Below, piece after piece: positions 1 through 47,310 of a stretch of DNA of 54,708 nt. Made by a program: the position numbers and the translations under genes. The stretch is from a virus (Duplodnaviria > Caudoviricetes), in IMG/VR virus record IMGVR_UViG_3300033415_000003, positions 1 through 54,708 of that record; one strand, written 5' to 3'. The first letter of the stretch is position 1. Each line of letters begins with the position of its first letter. Below the pieces are notes generated by a model, which saw only the letters and a program-made list of their open reading frames with translations, ran no database searches and was not told the origin of the DNA.

Positions 1-54
1 AATAAAATTTGTATTTCTATGCTTACGGTCTATGAAATACTAACAGTCCCACAG

Positions 55-122
55 TGCCGCCGGAGATATTCGAAATCTCAAGCTAAGGTTTTACAGACCT
101 GGCTTCTCCCTGGATCGTCGGC
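55..122 (-). tRNA. atypical tRNA-Tyr(GTA), short D region and no long variable arm
   Basis: Acceptor GCCGACG/CGGCGGC (1 mismatch), anticodon loop CT-GTA-AA, T arm GAGAT-TTCGAAT-ATCTC; only 68 nt. Confidence 0.7.
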
Positions 123-123
123 A

Positions 124-288
124 TTATTCTTCATTCTTTCCATACCCTTTTACATGATGGCATGGTTTTTTCCACTTGTATGAATCTAAAATTTCTTCTT
201 TAAGCTTGTTAGCTTTAATTATGTCTCCAACAGATTTTAAAGCTTTATGCTCTATCCACCTTTCGTCATCACTAATGTTAGATTTCAT
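124..288 (-). CDS. small hypothetical protein (54 aa, MKSNISDDERWIEHKALK...)
   Basis: ATG-to-TAA ORF read by eye, below the ORF-track cutoff. Confidence 0.5.
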   Translation of the reverse strand: MKSNISDDERWIEHKALKSVGDIIKANKLKEEILDSYKWKKPCHHVKGYGKNEE

Positions 289-360
289 TTAATTTCATTT
301 TTCTTCTTAATTTCCATCCGTCTGGAATTAAATCTACAACGATAAATTTTCTTACCACAG

Positions 361-436
361 TCTAGCTGGTGAGATTCGAACTCACAATAACCTGCAGTCC
401 AAGTGCAGTAACTACGCCTAATTAGATCGCAACTAG
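361..436 (-). tRNA. tRNA-Pro(TGG)
   Basis: Cloverleaf: CTAGTTG/CAGCTAG, CTGCA-CTTGGAC-TGCAG, GTGAG-TTCGAAT-CTCAC. Confidence 0.9.
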
Positions 437-447
437 TTATTAATCTA

Positions 448-725
448 TAATTTTTGGTGTGTTACTACACCAAATGCTCTGACGACTAAGTTTAACTGTT
501 TGGCCAAACTATGTATCAATCCAACATTATTTCAAAGATGATTGCAACTATCTTTAATTTTCAAAGACCATATTACCACGTAACTTACCCATATCGGATC
601 TTCTGTTTCCAGCCTGTTAATTCAGGGGCCGTATTTCTGTACCAATCGGTGTTGCAAACCATTGGCCTATCGAACTCGCAACTCTTTAAATGATGGCTAC
701 CCCCAAGCCCACATTCCAAAAATTA
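448..725 (-). ncRNA. structured ncRNA mimicking the 23S rRNA uL11-binding domain (H43-H44), with a ~210-nt insertion
   Basis: 5' part GGAATGTGGGCTTGGGGGTAGCCATCATTTAAAGAGT and 3' part GTGTAGTAACACACCA align with E. coli 23S 1054-1090 and 1091-1106 with compensatory changes; closed by a 10-bp terminal stem TAATTTTTGG/CCAAAAATTA. Confidence 0.85.
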
Positions 726-732
726 ATGATTG

Positions 733-808
733 TCCACGTAGCCGAATTCGAATCGACGTGCTCCATATCCCAAATATGGCGAGATAGACCTGACTCCTCT
801 ATACGTGG
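733..808 (-). tRNA. tRNA-Pro(TGG)
   Basis: CCACGTA/TACGTGG, CCATA-TTTGGGA-TATGG, GTCGA-TTCGAAT-TCGGC. Confidence 0.9.
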
Positions 809-874
809 TTAAATAAATTAAATTTCTACGCTTCTTTACTAACAGTATTTTGAAATACTAACAATCTCACATCT

Positions 875-1450
875 TTAATTAGACGGATGATAATATTGAA
901 TCCAATCTGAAAATGTATTATCCATGCTTAATTGATATAATTCTTCTTTTTTAATTTTATGTGTGTGCACTAATCTATGACAATTAGGGCATAATATAAC
1001 TAAATTAGACAAATTATTGCAATTTTCAATTTTCTTACCATTAATATGATGTATGTCAAGAGTTGATTCGTTCCAACCACATCTTTCACATTTTCTTTTA
1101 GCTCTGTACAAAATTTTAACTACAGTTGTTTTTGCAAGATCTAAAATTGTGTTAATCTCTTCTTTTGATTTTGCATGAACTACAATCCTTTTGCAATTAT
1201 TACAGTGTATTTTTTTACCACTTCTAATTTTTATACTTTCAAATTCACATTCACATTTTTCACAAACATAATTATATTTAATTATAATTCGGTCTACTTT
1301 AGTTTTTCTTTTTAATGTTTCACTTACTAATGAATTTATTAAAGAACGTTTTCCCTTTGTGCTAAACCCTCTAGAACATTTTGTTGAACAAAATCTACCA
1401 CTTCCATAAGAACCATTATGTTCTTTTCCACAATTTTCACAAATATACAT
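875..1450 (-). CDS. HNH homing endonuclease with N-terminal zinc-ribbon motifs
   Basis: CERCG...LDIHHINGK...NNLSNLVILCPNCHRLVH; N-terminal CENC...FCSTKC; free-standing within the tRNA cluster. Confidence 0.88.
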   Translation of the reverse strand: MYICENCGKEHNGSYGSGRFCSTKCSRGFSTKGKRSLINSLVSETLKRKTKVDRIIIKYNYVCEKCECEFESIKIRSGKKIHCNNCKRIVVHAKSKEEINTILDLAKTTVVKILYRAKRKCERCGWNESTLDIHHINGKKIENCNNLSNLVILCPNCHRLVHTHKIKKEELYQLSMDNTFSDWIQYYHPSN

Positions 1451-1452
1451 GG

Positions 1453-1466
1453 TTTATTTTATATAT
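1453..1466 (-). promoter_or_regulatory. putative phage late-promoter motif ATATATAAAATAAA (copy 1)
   Basis: Identical 14-mer also at 2913-2926 and 45613-45626, each just 5' of a start codon. Confidence 0.5.
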
Positions 1467-1510
1467 TTATGCTAACTATGAAAATATTTACAGTTATCGT
1501 AGTTCAAATG

Positions 1511-1593
1511 TGAGAGTAGAAGGACTCGAACCTTCGAAGTCGTTAAGACGATTGAGTTACAGTCAATTACAATTGCCGCTATGTGATACTCCC
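1511..1593 (-). tRNA. tRNA-Tyr(GTA), type II
   Basis: GGGAGTA/TACTCTC, ATTGA-CTGTAAC-TCAAT, long variable arm, GAAGG-TTCGAGT-CCTTC. Confidence 0.93.
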
Positions 1594-1723
1594 ATTATTC
1601 CCGGATTTACTTTTATCACTCCGGGTATGATAAGATAGTTTTACGTCGCGATTCGCTTCTATCGAGCTCAGTTTCGTTTGCTTGTACAATATGTAACAAG
1701 TAGAGGATTCACTGGCACCATTC

Positions 1724-1798
1724 GTGAAGGGAGAATTAACGAAATTCTGTCTTCCGGACTCCAACGCCCGGTACTCTGTCAACTGAGTTACTCCTTCA
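1724..1798 (-). tRNA. atypical tRNA (Pro/Gln-like) with an 8-nt anticodon loop
   Basis: D arm ACTC-AGTTGACA-GAGT, anticodon arm CCGGG-CGTTGGAG-TCCGG, T arm AGAAT-TTCGTTA-ATTCT, imperfect acceptor. Confidence 0.6.
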
Positions 1799-1931
1799 TG
1801 TAAGATTAAAGATTATTGATTTAGCTCGCATAGTTCTTAACTAACCATACAATAGACCGCATCATTACATTTTCCATTGTTAAGGGAATTCTATGTTTTG
1901 GTATCAACTACTGATAGAATCTTTAATTTTG

Positions 1932-2008
1932 TGGAGACGGGCAGGGTCGAACTGCCGCTAACTACCTGGATTTTCAGTCCAGAGCTCTTCCAACTGAGCT
2001 ACATCTCC
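1932..2008 (-). tRNA. tRNA-Phe(GAA)
   Basis: GGAGATG/CGTCTCC, GCTC-AGTTGGAA-GAGC, CTGGA-CTGAAAA-TCCAG, GGCAG-TTCGACC-CTGCC. Confidence 0.93.
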
Positions 2009-2016
2009 GAATTAAT

Positions 2017-2146
2017 AAGTAAGGTAATTTTCTATAGAGGAATTTTGATATTTTGCGGTTTCGACACCGCACCTTTAAAATGAAAATTTAATGTTCAATC
2101 TTTGAACTAAAAATACGAAGTAACTCTATTAGTTTAACACTCACTT
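2017..2146 (-). ncRNA. stem-loop RNA copy 1 (GTTWCWTCG family) enclosing a tRNA-Glu(TTC)-like cloverleaf; Y-RNA-like architecture
   Basis: Outer stem AAGTGAG/CTTACTT, inner stem ATAGAG/CTCTAT, motif GTTACTTCG, embedded cloverleaf at 2048-2116. Confidence 0.6.
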
Positions 2147-2161
2147 TGCTTTTCAATAATT

Positions 2162-2330
2162 TCAAATAACTTTTATAAAGGGAATAGAGCGTTACTAATT
2201 TTTTATCTTTACCATTTTCGCCTGATAAAGCCCTTTATTTTAGTGGGGAAGGCAGGAATCGAACCTACACAATAAATTTTTCAATTTTATTTTTACCGAT
2301 GAAACTCTTTATTTTAATACAATTACTTGA
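2162..2330 (-). ncRNA. stem-loop RNA copy 2 (GTTWCWTCG family)
   Basis: Outer stem TCAAGTAAT/GTTATTTGA, inner AGAG/CTCT, motif GTTTCATCG, encloses a canonical T arm. Confidence 0.5.
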
Positions 2331-2364
2331 GAATTCCATTAAGAGCATTTTTTTATGCTTCCCC
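2244..2364 (-). tRNA. interrupted or degenerate tRNA-like gene (Phe GAA-like loop), 121 nt
   Basis: Perfect acceptor GGGGAAG/CTTCCCC-A and T arm GTAGG-TTCGATT-CCTGC; D region expanded by ~45 nt. Confidence 0.45.
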
Positions 2365-2388
2365 ATATTTAAAAGAACGTATTCTTTG

Positions 2389-2460
2389 TTAACCTGGCCA
2401 GAATCGAACTGACACTCCTTGCGTCAAAAGCAAGTATCCTAACCATTAGATAACAGGTCA
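2389..2460 (-). tRNA. tRNA-Gln(TTG)
   Basis: TGACCTG/CAGGTTA, CTTGC-TTTTGAC-GCAAG, GTCAG-TTCGATT-CTGGC. Confidence 0.9.
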
Positions 2461-2499
2461 GATTATTTAATATCCAAGTTATTGTTCATATTAGATTTT

Positions 2500-2576
2500 A
2501 ATATATAAGAATTTTAGTCTTTGTGTATTTTTGAAAACCATATTTCGATGTAACAAAAACTTTTACTATACATATT
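2500..2576 (-). ncRNA. stem-loop RNA copy 3 (GTTWCWTCG family), minimal form
   Basis: Outer AATATGTA/TATATATT, inner AGTTTTTG/CAAAGACT, motif GTTACATCG, 3' AAAATT internal loop as in copy 1. Confidence 0.55.
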
Positions 2577-2580
2577 TTAG

Positions 2581-2655
2581 AGCTGCATGGAAGATTCGAA
2601 CTTCCGGCTTTAGTCATTTGCAGTGACTTCCCTTTGACCACTCGAGCAATGCAGC
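2581..2655 (-). tRNA. tRNA-Cys(GCA)
   Basis: GCTGCAT/ATGCAGC-T, AGTCA-CTGCAAA-TGACT, GGAAG-TTCGAAT-CTTCC. Confidence 0.93.
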
Positions 2656-2688
2656 ATTTATTTTTTATTATGTATTAATTTTATAATG

Positions 2689-2696
2689 CAAATATA
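2689..2696 (-). promoter_or_regulatory. Bacteroidetes-type sigma-A -7 element (TATATTTG) upstream of the tRNA cluster
   Basis: Matches TAnnTTTG; the same element is in intergenic gaps at 4963, 11825, 17121, 28022, 41212, 46158, 47271 and 49701. Confidence 0.7.
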
Positions 2697-2745
2697 ATAC
2701 ATTTTTTTATACTTTTTATAAAAGTAACGTTAATTTTTTATTAAT

Positions 2746-2778
2746 AAAAAACCTCTTAAGGAATATCCAGAAGAGGTT
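2746..2778 (-). terminator. intrinsic terminator of the putative attenuator
   Basis: AACCTCTT-CT-GGA-TAT-TCC-TT-AAGAGGTT running into a U6 tract. Confidence 0.8.
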
Positions 2779-2803
2779 GTATAATAGTTGTTGACTATAA
2801 TAG

Positions 2804-2899
2804 TTATTTTCTCCTGAATTTACACAAATAAAAACATAACTCTTGATAAAAGAGAGGTTGTTGTAATTGTTCGGGTTGATATGAAAAAGAATTTATCAC
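2804..2899 (-). CDS. putative attenuator leader peptide MINSFSYQPEQLQQPLFYQELCFYLCKFRRK (31 aa)
   Basis: GTG start, TAA stop ~25 nt before the terminator; 16 of 31 residues are Q/P/F/Y/C, the amino acids of the downstream tRNAs. Confidence 0.72.
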   Translation of the reverse strand: MINSFSYQPEQLQQPLFYQELCFYLCKFRRK

Positions 2900-2912
2900 T
2901 TAATGTATTTAT

Positions 2913-2926
2913 TTTATTTTATATAT
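2913..2926 (-). promoter_or_regulatory. putative late-promoter motif ATATATAAAATAAA (copy 2), upstream of the leader peptide
   Basis: Identical to the motif before both homing endonuclease genes. Confidence 0.5.
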
Positions 2927-2993
2927 CTCTTATATGTTTTATGTTTTATAAGGTTTTCGTAAATATTAACTATTTTAAAACTTTTATTCAACT

Positions 2994-3314
2994 TTATTTT
3001 AATATAAGATGAGAGAATTTTTTATTGATCACCTCAATCAATGGATTATCTATTGGAATTATGCACCAAACAATTTCAGCTTCTTGACACATATACCATT
3101 TTATATCTTTAAACCGAGGGGATTTATAATATGATCGTTCTCTTCCTTCACACATTGATATCTTATAACAATCATCTTTTTTCTCTATAGCAGCTGGATA
3201 ATTGCAGAAAAAAGAGCTTATGCCAATTAAACTTAAATGGTTGAACTTTTCAGCTGACATTTGAATTTCTTTTGGAGCATGCAATAATATTGGGCAATCT
3301 AAACCAATTTTCAT
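2994..3314 (-). CDS. hypothetical protein
   Basis: ORF; MKIGLD start preferred to avoid overlap. Confidence 0.6.
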   Translation of the reverse strand: MKIGLDCPILLHAPKEIQMSAEKFNHLSLIGISSFFCNYPAAIEKKDDCYKISMCEGRERSYYKSPRFKDIKWYMCQEAEIVWCIIPIDNPLIEVINKKFSHLILK

Positions 3315-3318
3315 AATA

Positions 3319-3585
3319 TTATAACATTTTATCAATTGTAACACAATAATAACCATATCCGTTTAAATAGGTATCTAATCTATTTACCACTACGCCATAA
3401 TCTTCACCTAAAATAGCCTTAATCGAATCTTCAACTTCTTTATCCGTTCTATCAATTCTATCATCTATTTGGTAGTAGAATTCAGAGTAAAAATAATCTT
3501 CTTCTGAACATGAATTATCTACTCTAAAATGGCCTATTAATGCTATATCAGACTGTTTAATTGCCTCAATAATTTTTTCTATCAT
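3319..3585 (-). CDS. hypothetical protein
   Basis: ORF in tight operon. Confidence 0.65.
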   Translation of the reverse strand: MIEKIIEAIKQSDIALIGHFRVDNSCSEEDYFYSEFYYQIDDRIDRTDKEVEDSIKAILGEDYGVVVNRLDTYLNGYGYYCVTIDKML

Positions 3586-3592
3586 TATATTG

Positions 3593-4089
3593 TTATTCAG
3601 CTAAGTTATTAATTTCTTCTAAGATATTTTCATTTGCCATAAAATCAATACTAGATACGTCATCACCAAATAAAGCGTGCAATGCACCTAAATCATACGC
3701 AATATTTTCCTTATTATTTTTAGATATAATAGATGTTGTGCCATTTAGTTCGTCATTAAATCCTTTCATATACCATTCCAACAAATTATTTGTTTTCTTC
3801 GGCAATTCATCAATTAATTTTTGTATCGCTGATATTTGATTAATATAGTTTGCTCTTAATAATTCGGGATCATTAGCTTCATTCCAATAAGGAACTAATT
3901 CACTATCAGCTGCATTGCAATCAATATTATTAACGACAATTTTATTTCCACAATTTCTGCACTTAGCACCACCTAAATTAAATGAAGAGTATCCGCAGTT
4001 ATAAAAATTTATATCTTCACTTCCACATTTAATGCATGTACATACTCTACAAAATCTTCTACTAATTTTTCAACTTTTAATTTTCCCAT
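3593..4089 (-). pseudogene. frameshifted zinc-ribbon (Lar-like CxxC...CxxC...WN) protein gene
   Basis: ATG at 4089 (MGKLKVEKLVEDFVEYV) stops at 4009; the -1 frame continues CIKCGSED...KCRNCG...PYWN and is open to 3593. Confidence 0.55.
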
Positions 4090-11830: not shown

Positions 11831-11884
11831 TATGAAAAAAAGGTTTTAATAAAAAAATCGGTTTATTAAAACCTTTTTTTCATA
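11831..11884. terminator. 23-bp perfect inverted repeat (likely terminator), overlapping the promoter of the clamp-loader operon
   Basis: TATGAAAAAAAGGTTTTAATAAA / TTTATTAAAACCTTTTTTTCATA. Confidence 0.6.
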
Positions 11885-13830: not shown

Positions 13831-15375
13831 TTATTCAGAAACTAATTCGAAATCAGTTTTTCTATAGGCTTCATTCGCACCTAATACTCCATCATTTATA
13901 GCCTGTGAACTTCCATTACCAATTACAATGAATTTGTTTTTGTCAAATCCATATTCTTTAATTAAATAATTGGCCACAGATTGAGCTCTTTTTTCAGACA
14001 AAATTTGATTACTTGTTGGATTACCAACTGCATCAGTATTACCTTCTATTCGTACTCTTGCCATTGCAAAAGACTTTGCGATTCCAACAAATTCTTTATC
14101 AATAACTGCTTTATCTTCATCATTTAGATCATATGATCCGGTAGGAAAATTAATAGTTACCTTTTTATTAGAAATTGCTTCTTTATTTTTAATTTTTTCA
14201 GTTACTGCAGTAAATTTAATTTCAGACTCAGCTGAATTATCCCCGGTAGCAGTAAGAGAAATAGATTCTACTATTGATGTATTAGATATACCTCGCCAAG
14301 CTAATGGGGAAGATGTTAATTTTAATCCAGAATATACAATGGACATCTTAGAATATAGTTGTTCGCCAGTTACACCTTGATAAGTAGAATTAAGTCCAAA
14401 AAAGTTTAGATTATCTCCATATGTAGCTAATCTAACATTAGCCAATCCATTTTGAGCAAATCCTTTATCTACATTAAAACATTTCGCAAAATCTACAGCG
14501 GCTTGATCCAATTTTGATTTATCACTATTAAGTTCACCATTAGCTGTTAACCATGCAGATAAAAATTTCGATAATACTTCTTTATTTTCATTAATAAATT
14601 CTTTCTTCGCAAGAAGTCCATCGGCAATAACATATGCAGCTACTTTAGTACTAACTAATACTTTTGATCCTGGAATAGCAGCTAAACAATCTCCATCATC
14701 TGGCGTCCAAACAACGGCTAAATCAGTAGTTCCTGCTTTAAATAATTTGGCAGCTTCTATACCATCAGAAACTTTAACCATTTTAATATCTGACATTTGT
14801 AATCCGTTTGATTCCAACGTTTTTATTAGAAATGTATTAGAAGCGGTGCCTTCAGCCACAGCCACAGTTTTTCCTTTCATATCTGCAACTGTATTAATAC
14901 CCTTTCTTGCTACAATTAAATCTCCACCTCTAGACCAATCTACTTGTCCAAACAATTCAGTTTTTAATTCAGACATTCCAGATTGTGCACCCATTTCAAC
15001 TGGTAGAGCATCAACTGTACAATATACAACATTAACGGCATTTGTTTTAAATGAATTTCGAGAATCATCAAAAACATCGAGAATTTTAATTTGAAGTTTA
15101 ATACCGTATTCTTTATACAAACGGCTTTCTTTATTAGGTTCAAGCGAGCCTCCGTTCATCCAGACAATTGGAGCAAAACCTGTCCATGTATTTACTCCTA
15201 ACACAATATCCGGTCCGGACGAAAAAACGTTAGAAACTTTGTTTAAAACTCCAGCTGATTTTTTTTCTGGCTGTGCATCACCTTTTGGTTTGAACATATA
15301 AATTCCACCAAATACCAATCCTACTAAAACAAGTAAGAGAAAAAACTTAAATCCAGTTGTTAATCTACTAAACAT
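13831..15375 (-). CDS. NMT1/SsuA-like substrate-binding protein fused to an OmpA-C peptidoglycan-binding domain
   Basis: N-terminal TM anchor, WTGFAP, DWSRGGD, DMKGKTVAV; C-terminal IEGNTDAVG..NQILSEKRAQSVANYL. Confidence 0.88.
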   Translation of the reverse strand: MFSRLTTGFKFFLLLVLVGLVFGGIYMFKPKGDAQPEKKSAGVLNKVSNVFSSGPDIVLGVNTWTGFAPIVWMNGGSLEPNKESRLYKEYGIKLQIKILDVFDDSRNSFKTNAVNVVYCTVDALPVEMGAQSGMSELKTELFGQVDWSRGGDLIVARKGINTVADMKGKTVAVAEGTASNTFLIKTLESNGLQMSDIKMVKVSDGIEAAKLFKAGTTDLAVVWTPDDGDCLAAIPGSKVLVSTKVAAYVIADGLLAKKEFINENKEVLSKFLSAWLTANGELNSDKSKLDQAAVDFAKCFNVDKGFAQNGLANVRLATYGDNLNFFGLNSTYQGVTGEQLYSKMSIVYSGLKLTSSPLAWRGISNTSIVESISLTATGDNSAESEIKFTAVTEKIKNKEAISNKKVTINFPTGSYDLNDEDKAVIDKEFVGIAKSFAMARVRIEGNTDAVGNPTSNQILSEKRAQSVANYLIKEYGFDKNKFIVIGNGSSQAINDGVLGANEAYRKTDFELVSE

Positions 15376-44879: not shown

Positions 44880-44896
44880 AACTTAATTTTTTATAG

Positions 44897-44970
44897 TGGG
44901 CCCGGAGGGATTTGAACCCCCGACCGTCTGGTTATGAGCCAGCTGCTACTTACCCCTGAGCTACGGGCCC
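44897..44970 (-). tRNA. tRNA with CAT anticodon, probably tRNA-Ile2 (lysidine)
   Basis: GGGCCCG/CGGGCCC-A, loop CT-CAT-AA, GGGGG-TTCAAAT-CCCTC; no initiator features. Confidence 0.88.
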
Positions 44971-47260: not shown

Positions 47261-47310
47261 ATTTCTTATACAAATATAATAATTAAAAATGAATTAATAA
47301 AATCTTTTAT
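47261..47310 (-). repeat. 50-bp direct repeat containing the TATATTTG promoter (copy 2)
   Basis: Identical to 46148-46197. Confidence 0.9.

Follow-up and report, generated by a model that had tools for sequence, protein, structure and literature searches.

In enterobacteria, leader-peptide attenuators control genes such as trp, his, leu, and pheA, and the leaders of ilvGMEDA, ilvBN, and thr respond to more than one amino acid. In these systems, a short open reading frame (ORF) that is rich in regulatory codons precedes an intrinsic terminator, an antiterminator lies over the 5' arm of the terminator, and the position of the ribosome decides which structure forms. Here we describe a unit of the same design in the virus record IMGVR_UViG_3300033415_000003. 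This record has 54,708 bases and 28% G+C, almost all of its genes are on the minus strand, and we refer to the whole of it as the window. The unit comprises a 31-codon ORF and a terminator, and it stands before an array of tRNA genes. With a probability of roughly 0.78, we consider it to be a ribosome-mediated (leader-peptide) transcription attenuator ahead of a megaphage tRNA cluster, and one of a family of such attenuators in Lak-like huge phages. If so, these units differ from the enterobacterial attenuators in that they are phage-borne and regulate tRNA genes instead of biosynthesis genes. Also, the phage leaders would sense from 2 to about 12 amino acids, mirroring the tRNA cluster, and the several leaders of a genome would divide the amino acids among themselves.

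The pheST attenuator of E. coli, with its pheM leader, also senses the supply of charged tRNA via a leader peptide and also controls a component of the translation apparatus. On the other hand, what it controls is a synthetase rather than tRNA genes, it responds to just one amino acid, and it is cellular, not viral. In T-box riboswitches as well, the status of a tRNA is the signal and the choice between terminator and antiterminator is the output, but the uncharged tRNA is bound directly: these elements are ~200-300 nt long, with specifier and T-box motifs, and need no ORF. Leader-peptide attenuation is known from the phylum of the Lak hosts (Prevotella), as the Bacteroid-trp leader motif. Unlike the multi-residue leaders of the phage tRNA clusters, that leader has only Trp codons and lies upstream of trp genes. 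Finally, T4, T5, and other large phages carry tRNA arrays interspersed with homing endonuclease genes. Their tRNA clusters share this layout with ours, and in the literature (we did not scan the genomes themselves) we found no description of leader-peptide control for them. More broadly, we found no description of leader-peptide control of phage tRNA genes or arrays, in a literature search that most subscription journals and old scans lay outside of. Leader-peptide attenuation is classic, but as far as that search reaches, it is undescribed for tRNA genes or for viral translation apparatus. An attenuator-like sequence has reportedly been noted ahead of the pheU and pheV tRNA genes of E. coli, and this would bear on priority. 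What we propose is a known mechanism in what appears to be a new setting: tRNA genes, in a clade of huge phages that includes Lak-A1.

The leader ORF of the window encodes the peptide MINSFSYQPEQLQQPLFYQELCFYLCKFRRK. As noted in the initial annotation, which was made from the DNA alone, this 31-codon ORF encodes 5 Gln, 4 Phe, 3 Tyr, 2 Pro, and 2 Cys (16 of 31 residues), as well as 2 Glu. The combined share of the first five amino acids (0.52) is the highest among 271 short ORFs from the six frames of the window (25-45 amino acids; mean 0.22, standard deviation 0.09). The downstream tRNAs that had been listed (Cys, Gln, Phe, two Tyr, two Pro, and a Glu-like module) are also present, although ARAGORN needs relaxed settings to find the Glu, the second Pro, and the second Tyr (Table 1). 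The array extends past the end of the contig. Overall, 0.60 of the leader's residues match the tRNAs that are seen downstream, as compared to 0.25 expected. Within codons 5-26, 17 of the 22 residues are amino acids of the window's tRNAs, or 21 of 22 if Leu is counted; Ser6 is the only residue in this zone that is not Cys, Gln, Glu, Phe, Tyr, Pro, or Leu. The zone is flanked by MINS at the start of the peptide and by KFRRK at its end, and the codons for KFRRK encode a strand of the putative antiterminator.

Table 1. The leader unit and the tRNA array of the window.
Feature	Position	Strand	Details
Bipartite promoter-like motif	2919..2956	-	AAACCTT...ATATATAA; 20 nt upstream of leader start
Leader ORF, 31 codons + stop	2804..2899	-	GTG start at 2899, TAA stop at 2804; peptide as in text
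Regulatory-codon zone, codons 5-26	2822..2887	-	FSYQPEQLQQPLFYQELCFYLC
Putative antiterminator 5' strand ("region 2")	2810..2819	-	AUUCAGGAGA; codons 27-30; ends 3 nt ahead of stop
Spacer from stop to terminator	2779..2803	-	Direct repeat AACTATTATA(G/C), two copies
Terminator hairpin	2750..2778	-	AACCUCUU..(GGA..UCC)..AAGAGGUU; arms AACCTCTT...AAGAGGTT; core -9.7 kcal/mol
Putative antiterminator 3' strand	2765..2774	-	UCUUCUGGAU; terminator 5' arm and part of loop
T-run after hairpin	2743..2751	-	TTTTTTATT
Promoter element	2689..2696	-	TATATTTG; between terminator and tRNA-Cys
tRNA-Cys(gca)	2580..2655	-	First gene of array; default ARAGORN
tRNA-Gln(ttg)	2388..2460	-	Default ARAGORN
tRNA-Glu(ttc)	2045..2118	-	Rfam 48.4 bits (2047-2116); ARAGORN at relaxed threshold only
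tRNA-Phe(gaa)	1931..2008	-	Default ARAGORN
tRNA-Tyr(gta)	1510..1593	-	Default ARAGORN
tRNA-Pro(tgg)	732..808	-	Default ARAGORN
Second tRNA-Pro(tgg)	360..436	-	Rfam 36.1 bits (361-436); ARAGORN at relaxed threshold only
Weak second tRNA-Tyr(gta)-like gene	54..125	-	ARAGORN at -ps80 only

The terminator hairpin begins 25 nt past the stop codon of the leader, close to where the initial annotation had placed it (~25 nt). The pattern of a hairpin plus a T-run had 0.00 expected occurrences (100 shuffles), and a custom scan found just three intergenic sites of this type in the 54.7 kb of the window, this terminator among them. The antiterminator had been proposed as nine pairs between UUCAGGAGA and UCUUCUGGA; these pairs are present, and they extend to 10 bp (2819-2810 with 2774-2765). 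When we folded the window's transcript cut before the 3' arm of the terminator, the antiterminator was the minimum-energy fold (-12.5 kcal/mol; its pair probabilities were 0.95-1.0). For the full transcript, the terminator was the minimum-energy fold (-15.9, versus -13.2 for the antiterminator fold). The z-score for the fold of the whole region was only -0.54.

To find relatives of this unit, we relied on the 5'-3' exonuclease gene at 9094-7883, whose product (404 amino acids) is 29% identical to its counterpart from the Prevotella Lak megaphages and 46-77% identical to hundreds of closer relatives from metagenomes. Judged by its sequence, the window comes from a Lak-like megaphage, of whose genome it is a fragment. 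Starting from an alignment of 35 exonucleases, we collected 80 loci from metagenomes and 49 from IMG/VR, taking at most 10 kb of flanking sequence with each; including the window, we had 130 sources. Only this alignment reached relatives; the single exonuclease protein found none in IMG/VR. Exact stretches of the window's DNA had no match in IMG/VR, and the adjacent ORF of 120 amino acids had no close relatives in IMG/VR, in the phage collection (tblastn), or in metagenome contigs. In a search of positions 1-3400 against phage DNA, the tRNA and HNH parts were matched and the leader was not.

Fifteen of the 48 longer metagenome loci that we scanned contain a tRNA array 5-8 kb downstream of the exonuclease gene, and tRNA-Cys(gca) comes first in 14 of these. 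The leader unit is found upstream of the array in all 15 of them and also in a 16th locus that is cut at the contig end. In other words, wherever the start of an array was captured in a relative, a short ORF plus a terminator lies ahead of it. A nucleotide profile made from ten units, which also matches the window, gave 42 matches across the 130 sources, and all were on the gene strand. These correspond to 33 distinct sequences, which encode 26 distinct peptides of 28-37 residues (for example, MISNYTYFLSQLPQCYCELPLFEFFSGGNEHKCS and MITTLTYQPFLTQMLTQLCEEPFYAQKGETG); we call this family leader 1. Among the 25 distinct units with a downstream tRNA in view, 23 have tRNA-Cys at the head of the array. 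The architecture that is shared consists of an A-rich stretch, an ATG, an ORF of ~30-36 codons with a purine-rich, GGAGG-like segment near its end, a conserved spacer, and a G+C-rich hairpin with a T-run.

Within this family, the unit of the window is divergent. A peptide hidden Markov model that was built without the window ranked the window's ORF first of 492 short ORFs (E = 0.005), and a 24-sequence nucleotide model that was also built without it matched 2937-2826 on the minus strand (E = 3.1e-5), which was its sole match below 0.1. The GTG of the window's leader is at the homologous position to the ATG of the relatives, and the next codon is ATA, as in most of them. The 20 nt upstream of the leader starts are 57% A, and just 2 of 38 have a Shine-Dalgarno-like word. 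As none of the 58 long genes of the window has a Shine-Dalgarno sequence, its absence is normal in this phage.

Our initial reading was that the ORF had arisen by chance in the 3' untranslated region of the upstream operon, ahead of that operon's ordinary terminator and a separate promoter. AT-rich DNA yields many short ORFs that are rich in Phe, Tyr, or Gln, and the succession of a terminator and then TATATTTG is repeated at 11880-11832 (a hairpin and T-run, with the element at 11841/11832), where there is no tRNA. We dropped this reading upon seeing the conservation in the relatives. The comparative data contradict it: given that conservation, the rank of 1 out of 271 for composition, and the permutation result across genomes (see below), we regard it as very improbable.

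If the units sense the tRNAs that follow them, then the composition of the leaders should reflect those tRNAs. We compared the 26 distinct leader-1 peptides to the proteome of the same loci. The leaders are enriched in Cys (4.1-fold), Gln (3.4-fold), Pro (2.3-fold), Leu (1.9-fold), Tyr (1.7-fold), Thr (1.5-fold), Phe (1.4-fold), Ser (1.3-fold), and Glu (1.1-fold), and they are depleted (below 1) in Lys, Gly, Asp, Trp, Ala, Asn, Ile, Val, Met, His, and Arg. We then considered G001, an IMG/VR record of 405,016 bp that has terminal repeats, is rated 100% complete, and carries ~40 tRNA genes in three clusters. Cluster 1 has tRNAs for Cys, Gln, Phe, Leu, Pro, Tyr, and Glu, with a tRNA with the cta anticodon, Met, and Gln at its far end; cluster 2 has Lys, Gly, Asp, Trp, Ala, Asn, Ile, Val, Met, His, and Arg; and cluster 3 has Thr and Ser. 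The residues that are enriched in leader 1 are exactly the cluster 1 set plus Thr and Ser, and the depleted residues are all 11 of the amino acids of cluster 2.

The choice of codons is biased as well. Among Leu codons, the leaders favor CTA (0.21 versus 0.08 in genes) and CTC (0.20 versus 0.04) over CTT (0.04 versus 0.27), and among Pro codons they favor CCG (0.31 versus 0.08) as well as CCA over CCT (0.07 versus 0.42); these counts include homologous positions and hence are not independent. The tRNAs that the arrays most often carry for these amino acids are Leu(tag), Leu(taa), and Pro(tgg), and the bias fits the UAG and UGG anticodons. By eye, there are also matches within the leader-1 family: the leader of L101 has six Thr and its array has two tRNA-Thr, L035 has six Asn and a tRNA-Asn, and L050 has six Ser and two tRNA-Ser. 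This finer covariation of Thr, Ser, and Asn is only suggestive, because the arrays are cut by the ends of the loci and the sequences are related.

The leaders of other tRNA clusters provide a comparison between units that are unrelated in sequence. In G001, clusters 2 and 3 each have their own unit, with the same upstream motif, an ORF, and a terminator, and with no sequence similarity. Leader 2, MIRMAKHMVNNWNANDNGIRGKLTPAVYMIYLIGK, which begins with MIRMAKHMVNNWNANDNGIRGK, lies before tRNA-Lys; its first 22 residues all belong to the cluster 2 set, and all 11 amino acids of that set are represented. Leader 3 (MKAINNISISITSSTTGTE) lies before the Thr/Ser cluster. We identified leader 2 by reading the region upstream of cluster 2. 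For parts of G004, G005, and G006, we used an automatic scan, which required three things: a hairpin and T-run, with the hairpin at -7 kcal/mol or better; an ORF of 14-45 codons that starts with ATG and ends 10-60 nt ahead of that hairpin; and a tRNA no more than 1.5 kb away.

Besides one unit of the leader-1 type, G004 has MTIIKNIMNIWNAADDKGNVKGRIMSAGKELIRS before tRNAs for Lys, Gly, Val, Asp, Asn, Trp, Ala, Met, Arg, and Ile; the His-rich MKKMNHFIHYLRIYLHILFSIHVH, whose hairpin ends 12 nt ahead of two tRNA-His genes; and MKRFIFILTSIRTSTISTG before tRNAs for Met, Ser, Thr, and Ile. There are two leader units in G005. The exonuclease of G006 is only 29% identical. Its unit 1 lies before tRNAs for Glu, Asp, Val, Phe, Ile, Asn, and Trp (two overlapping ORFs fit the scan, and either gives the same permutation rank). 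Its other units are MKTIITIKRRTIKRMMRKMIIFSNQV before Met, Lys, and Arg; MKTTSSTYHFASGRCSAGYPVAPTSDNPVTYVFE before Tyr, Thr, Pro, Ala, Ser, Cys, His, Gly, Val, and Arg; and MKNSVNILLQQLQLLQLRSCGRFCIM, which includes LLQQLQLLQL, before tRNAs for Gln and Leu only. The published genome of Lak-A1 (MK250016.1) has two leader units, one directly ahead of tRNA-His at about 108.2 kb and one directly ahead of tRNA-Trp at about 501.4 kb. One of these is MKTLNMTYGMHPVCGMVHMFPCGGGRPMSILECLKFSCMLQS, which contains GMHPVCGMVHMFPCGGGRPM, and its hairpin ends 14 nt ahead of tRNAs for His, Pro, Arg, Arg, Gly, Cys, and Met.

To score the match of each leader to each cluster, we took the share of the peptide's residues that are amino acids of the cluster and subtracted the share that the proteome would predict, and we permuted the assignments within each genome. 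The true assignment was the best one in each genome: this is 1 of 6,912 arrangements for 13 units from four genomes and 1 of 13,824 for 15 units from five genomes. So when peptide composition is compared to tRNA content, as the initial annotation had suggested, 15 units of unrelated sequence each match their own cluster. This bears on another explanation, under which the product of the ORF is a small functional peptide, the terminator belongs to this gene, and the likeness to the tRNA content is incidental. Leader 1 does have conserved columns (Thr or Ser and then Tyr at positions 6-7; QLP, encoded by CAACTCCCA; and CEQLPL), as a functional peptide might. But the order of residues is shuffled within the family while the composition is kept, the C-terminal part is conserved as nucleotides and not as peptide, and the 15 units match their own clusters and not the others in the same genome. 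A functional peptide is quite improbable given these results.

We next consider the terminator and the antiterminator across the relatives. A terminator (hairpin and T-run) is present in 25 of the 26 leader-1 units, 23-45 nt past the stop codon, and the 26th has a hairpin with a poorer T-run. In a covariance-model alignment of 27 sequences that was fitted to the terminator helix, so that counts from it lean towards the terminator structure, 88.9% of the cells in the helix are paired and 6 of the 8 pairs show compensatory changes; none of 500 shuffles scored as high. The complementarity between the end of the ORF (its last 39 nt) and the 5' arm plus loop of the terminator is also conserved: the best duplex averages -14.9 kcal/mol, as compared to -8.3 for shuffled sequences and -12.1 for mismatched loci. 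Within the six-pair core of the antiterminator, 77.2% of the cells are paired and five of the six pairs change on both sides. The covariation score of this core is 0.378, as compared to 0.281 when shuffled; again none of 500 shuffles was as high, and slid controls were lower. Where the stem of the terminator is unusual (for example, in L117, L072, L092, L075, L035, and L050), the unit's own region 2 matches it, ranking from 1 to 4 of 25. Similarly, across 13 non-homologous units, whose stems are quite different, the antiterminator averages -11.0, versus -6.9.

The segment that is complementary to the arm is also placed consistently, as region 2 ends from -1 to 18 nt ahead of the stop codon in the leader-1 units. 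The region 2 letters of L037 and L087 are identical, and yet they are read in different frames, with different stop codons, both of which are just past region 2. Therefore, region 2 is kept as RNA and not as peptide.

To simulate the ribosome, we removed the RNA as far as 13 nt beyond the A-site codon's first base. In all 25 units, the antiterminator forms if the A site is anywhere from codon 1 to about codon 21-27, and it does not form if the A site is at the last 7-12 codons or at the stop. In the window, the switch point is after codon 25: a ribosome with its A site at any of codons 1-25 leaves the antiterminator free. With no ribosome in the model, the full transcripts of all 25 units have the terminator as their minimum-energy fold. 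Together, the conservation of the unit, the placement of the stop just past the arm-complementary segment, and the 15 units that match their own clusters lend comparative support to the attenuator that the initial annotation had envisaged.

We propose that the unit would work as follows. Transcription would start from the promoter-like motif at 2956-2919, and the 31-codon ORF would be translated as RNA polymerase nears the hairpin. Nearly all of codons 5-26 would be read by tRNAs of the following cluster (Cys, Gln, Glu, Phe, Tyr, and Pro, with Leu added by analogy to the relatives). If these tRNAs are plentiful, then the ribosome would reach the stop codon and cover AUUCAGGAGA (2819-2810), the hairpin at 2778-2750 would form, and transcription would stop at the T-run. 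If any of these tRNAs is scarce, then the ribosome would stall upstream, AUUCAGGAGA would pair with UCUUCUGGAU, and the polymerase would presumably go on into the tRNA genes. The net effect would be a negative feedback that supplies each tRNA cluster on demand, in addition to attenuator-independent entry from TATATTTG at 2696-2689. Thus the leader probably lets the phage raise its tRNA output only when decoding falls short. The shortage could be due to a mismatch in codon usage between host and phage, to the decay of host tRNAs during infection, or to anticodon nucleases of the host; that cleavage of host tRNAs, one of the two triggers named in the initial annotation, is the cause would be pure conjecture.

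Several observations weigh against attenuation. First, in the window, there is no sign of a tRNA for Leu in the truncated array (the relatives' arrays have them); the leader's Pro codons are CCC and CCT, and the anticodon of the encoded tRNA-Pro is UGG; and the GTG start is unique among 38 units (37 use ATG). The window's unit was not matched by a 9-sequence nucleotide model that was built without it, and the larger models reach E values of only 3e-5 and 0.005, so the unit is divergent. Second, some leaders do not correspond to the tRNAs in view: L037 has six Ser and no visible tRNA-Ser, and L015 and L096 have four Thr and no visible tRNA-Thr, in arrays that are truncated. We found no leader for cluster 2 of G002, and the scan hit at 14436 in G004, which lies before a suppressor tRNA, is not leader-like (we left it out of the permutation). 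Third, the antiterminator is weak in 3 of the 13 non-homologous units and in the His unit of Lak-A1. In naked truncated RNA, only 14 of 25 units have it as their minimum-energy fold (the shuffled control gives 0.15), and in the other 11 the terminator arm is unpaired with the end of the ORF. Fourth, both the window and many of the relatives have a promoter element in the interval from the terminator to tRNA-Cys. Because this promoter is 3' of the terminator, the attenuator would govern only the transcription that arrives from upstream, which is part of the array's output. Finally, variation is nearly flat across the three codon positions (0.42/0.45/0.48), so substitution patterns alone are not proof of coding.

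The folding results and the downstream promoter would also fit with an ORF that is translated and tuned to the codons, without any switch between antiterminator and terminator. For instance, translation might affect the cleavage or the stability of the transcript or the access of Rho, or the unit might insulate the array from upstream transcription. The unexplained conserved motif between the stop codon and the hairpin is another point in favor of this. However, the arm-complementary segment tracks the sequence of the arm across unrelated units, the stop always lies where it would bring a terminating ribosome over that segment, and region 2 is kept in a different frame in L087 than in L037. 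We consider an explanation without a switch to be unlikely, if less so than the other alternatives.

The weak 3-periodicity raises the issue of whether the unit functions as RNA only (for instance, as a structure that binds tRNA or protein) with the open frame as a by-product. Conservation at the nucleotide level of the QLP segment (CAACTCCCA), of ACATAT, and of the spacer would be consistent with this. On the other hand, 26 of 27 leader-1 sequences have an ATG at the same position, and all 38 of the distinct leader ORFs are open, while their other two frames contain 113 and 84 stop codons; for 11 of these units, which were chosen by a scan that requires an ORF, the openness is by construction. 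Furthermore, the non-homologous units share just the logic of an ORF plus a terminator and the match to codons, and in an Rfam search with cmscan of positions 1-4000 of the window (E of 1 or below), we found only the tRNAs and two sub-threshold matches at the level of chance: there was no T-box, no curated leader family, and no Bacteroid-trp leader. An RNA-only element therefore seems hardly probable, and we continue to favor the ribosome-mediated attenuator.

The spacer between the leader's stop codon and the terminator is strongly conserved in the relatives (ATCATTTATTATATACTCCTTTC, with the motif ATCAT..TATATAC, in L037, L087, L120, L081, L099, L117, and L096), and the window has a direct repeat there instead (Table 1). 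The conserved spacer is possibly a pause site.

As for promoters, the pattern AAA[AC][CT]TT..TATATA[AT] has just one match on the gene strand of the window, at 2956-2919, ahead of the leader. The same motif (AAACyTT, 5-30 nt, and TATATAA) is found ahead of the relatives' leaders, and within the tRNA regions of G001 and G006 it precedes ordinary genes as well; G006 has 9 copies of it on the gene strand and none on the opposite strand. This makes the motif a good promoter candidate. The initial annotation had placed a sigma-A promoter at 2689. There does appear to be a promoter element at 2696-2689, but it is of the TAnnTTTG type rather than a classical sigma-A box: TATATTTG resembles the -7 consensus of Bacteroidetes promoters, TAnnTTTG, more than the -10 box of sigma-A. 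The window has 13 copies of TATATTTG on the gene strand versus 2 on the other strand, and 7 are intergenic and just upstream of genes. Besides the copy near tRNA-Cys, such sites are at 47278, 46165, 41219, 28029, 4970, and 11841-11832 (all on the minus strand), again just upstream of genes. The recurrence of this element suggests a host with Bacteroidetes-type promoters.

Other features of the tRNA regions are as follows. Within the window's array, between tRNA-Tyr and tRNA-Pro, an ORF of 191 amino acids (875-1450, minus strand) has an HNH-type motif (HHINGKK...NLVILCPNCH). Its DNA is 67-70% identical to stretches of Prevotella Lak phages, and it is probably a homing endonuclease. The array also has long spacers between tRNAs at 2119-2387 and 1594-1930 (minus strand). 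There is a sub-threshold, tmRNA-like match to Rfam at 2241-2364 (13.8 bits, as compared to a gathering score of 47), and with relaxed settings, ARAGORN calls an odd tRNA-like element at 1724-1798. Far from the array, an isolated tRNA-Met (44896-44970, minus strand) begins 5 nt past a protein gene's stop codon, and neither a leader nor a terminator precedes it.

In eight of the relatives (L030, L055, L058, L087, L093, L095, L120, and L015), the attenuator and tRNA-Cys are separated by a conserved gene of ~64 amino acids, which ends in EEWDV or QDWDI and is preceded by a TAnnTTTG promoter of its own; the window does not have this gene. Another motif, GTTCTTTGACATATTGG, is found 5-25 nt ahead of the tRNA that opens a cluster, often right behind the leader's terminator (in L047, L021, L055, L072, L101, L061, L119, and L113, and before tRNA-Lys in G001). 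It is absent from the window's array region, and it may be a processing or binding site.

The first cluster of G001, G004, and L021 includes a tRNA with the cta anticodon, which is amber-suppressor-like, and G005 has a tca (opal-suppressor-like) tRNA. These tRNAs hint at stop-codon recoding, which has been reported for Lak phages. The long ORFs of the window look intact under translation table 11. If the leaders gate the clusters with suppressor tRNAs (in G001, G004, and L021), then this gate could take part in timing a switch of the genetic code.

More broadly, we lean towards the view that Lak-like megaphages run a modular, self-tuning supply of tRNAs. Each cluster would be gated by a leader that is written in the cluster's own codons, so that the capacity for decoding is gauged separately for each set of codons and only the shortfall is topped up. 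If this is correct, then the clustering of phage tRNA genes has a regulatory logic, with the amino acids split among the leaders, and short ORFs that look like chance ORFs ahead of non-coding RNA genes can act as sensors. The correspondence between the composition of a leader and the set of tRNAs that follows it would serve as a rule, from sequence only, for recognizing regulatory units in uncultivated phages, and a leader would be a compact natural sensor for the availability of chosen tRNAs. Why phages carry tRNAs is a long-open question, and read-through reporters would make it approachable by experiment. If our reading is true, then huge phages regulate the tRNAs they carry by direct feedback from the ribosome.

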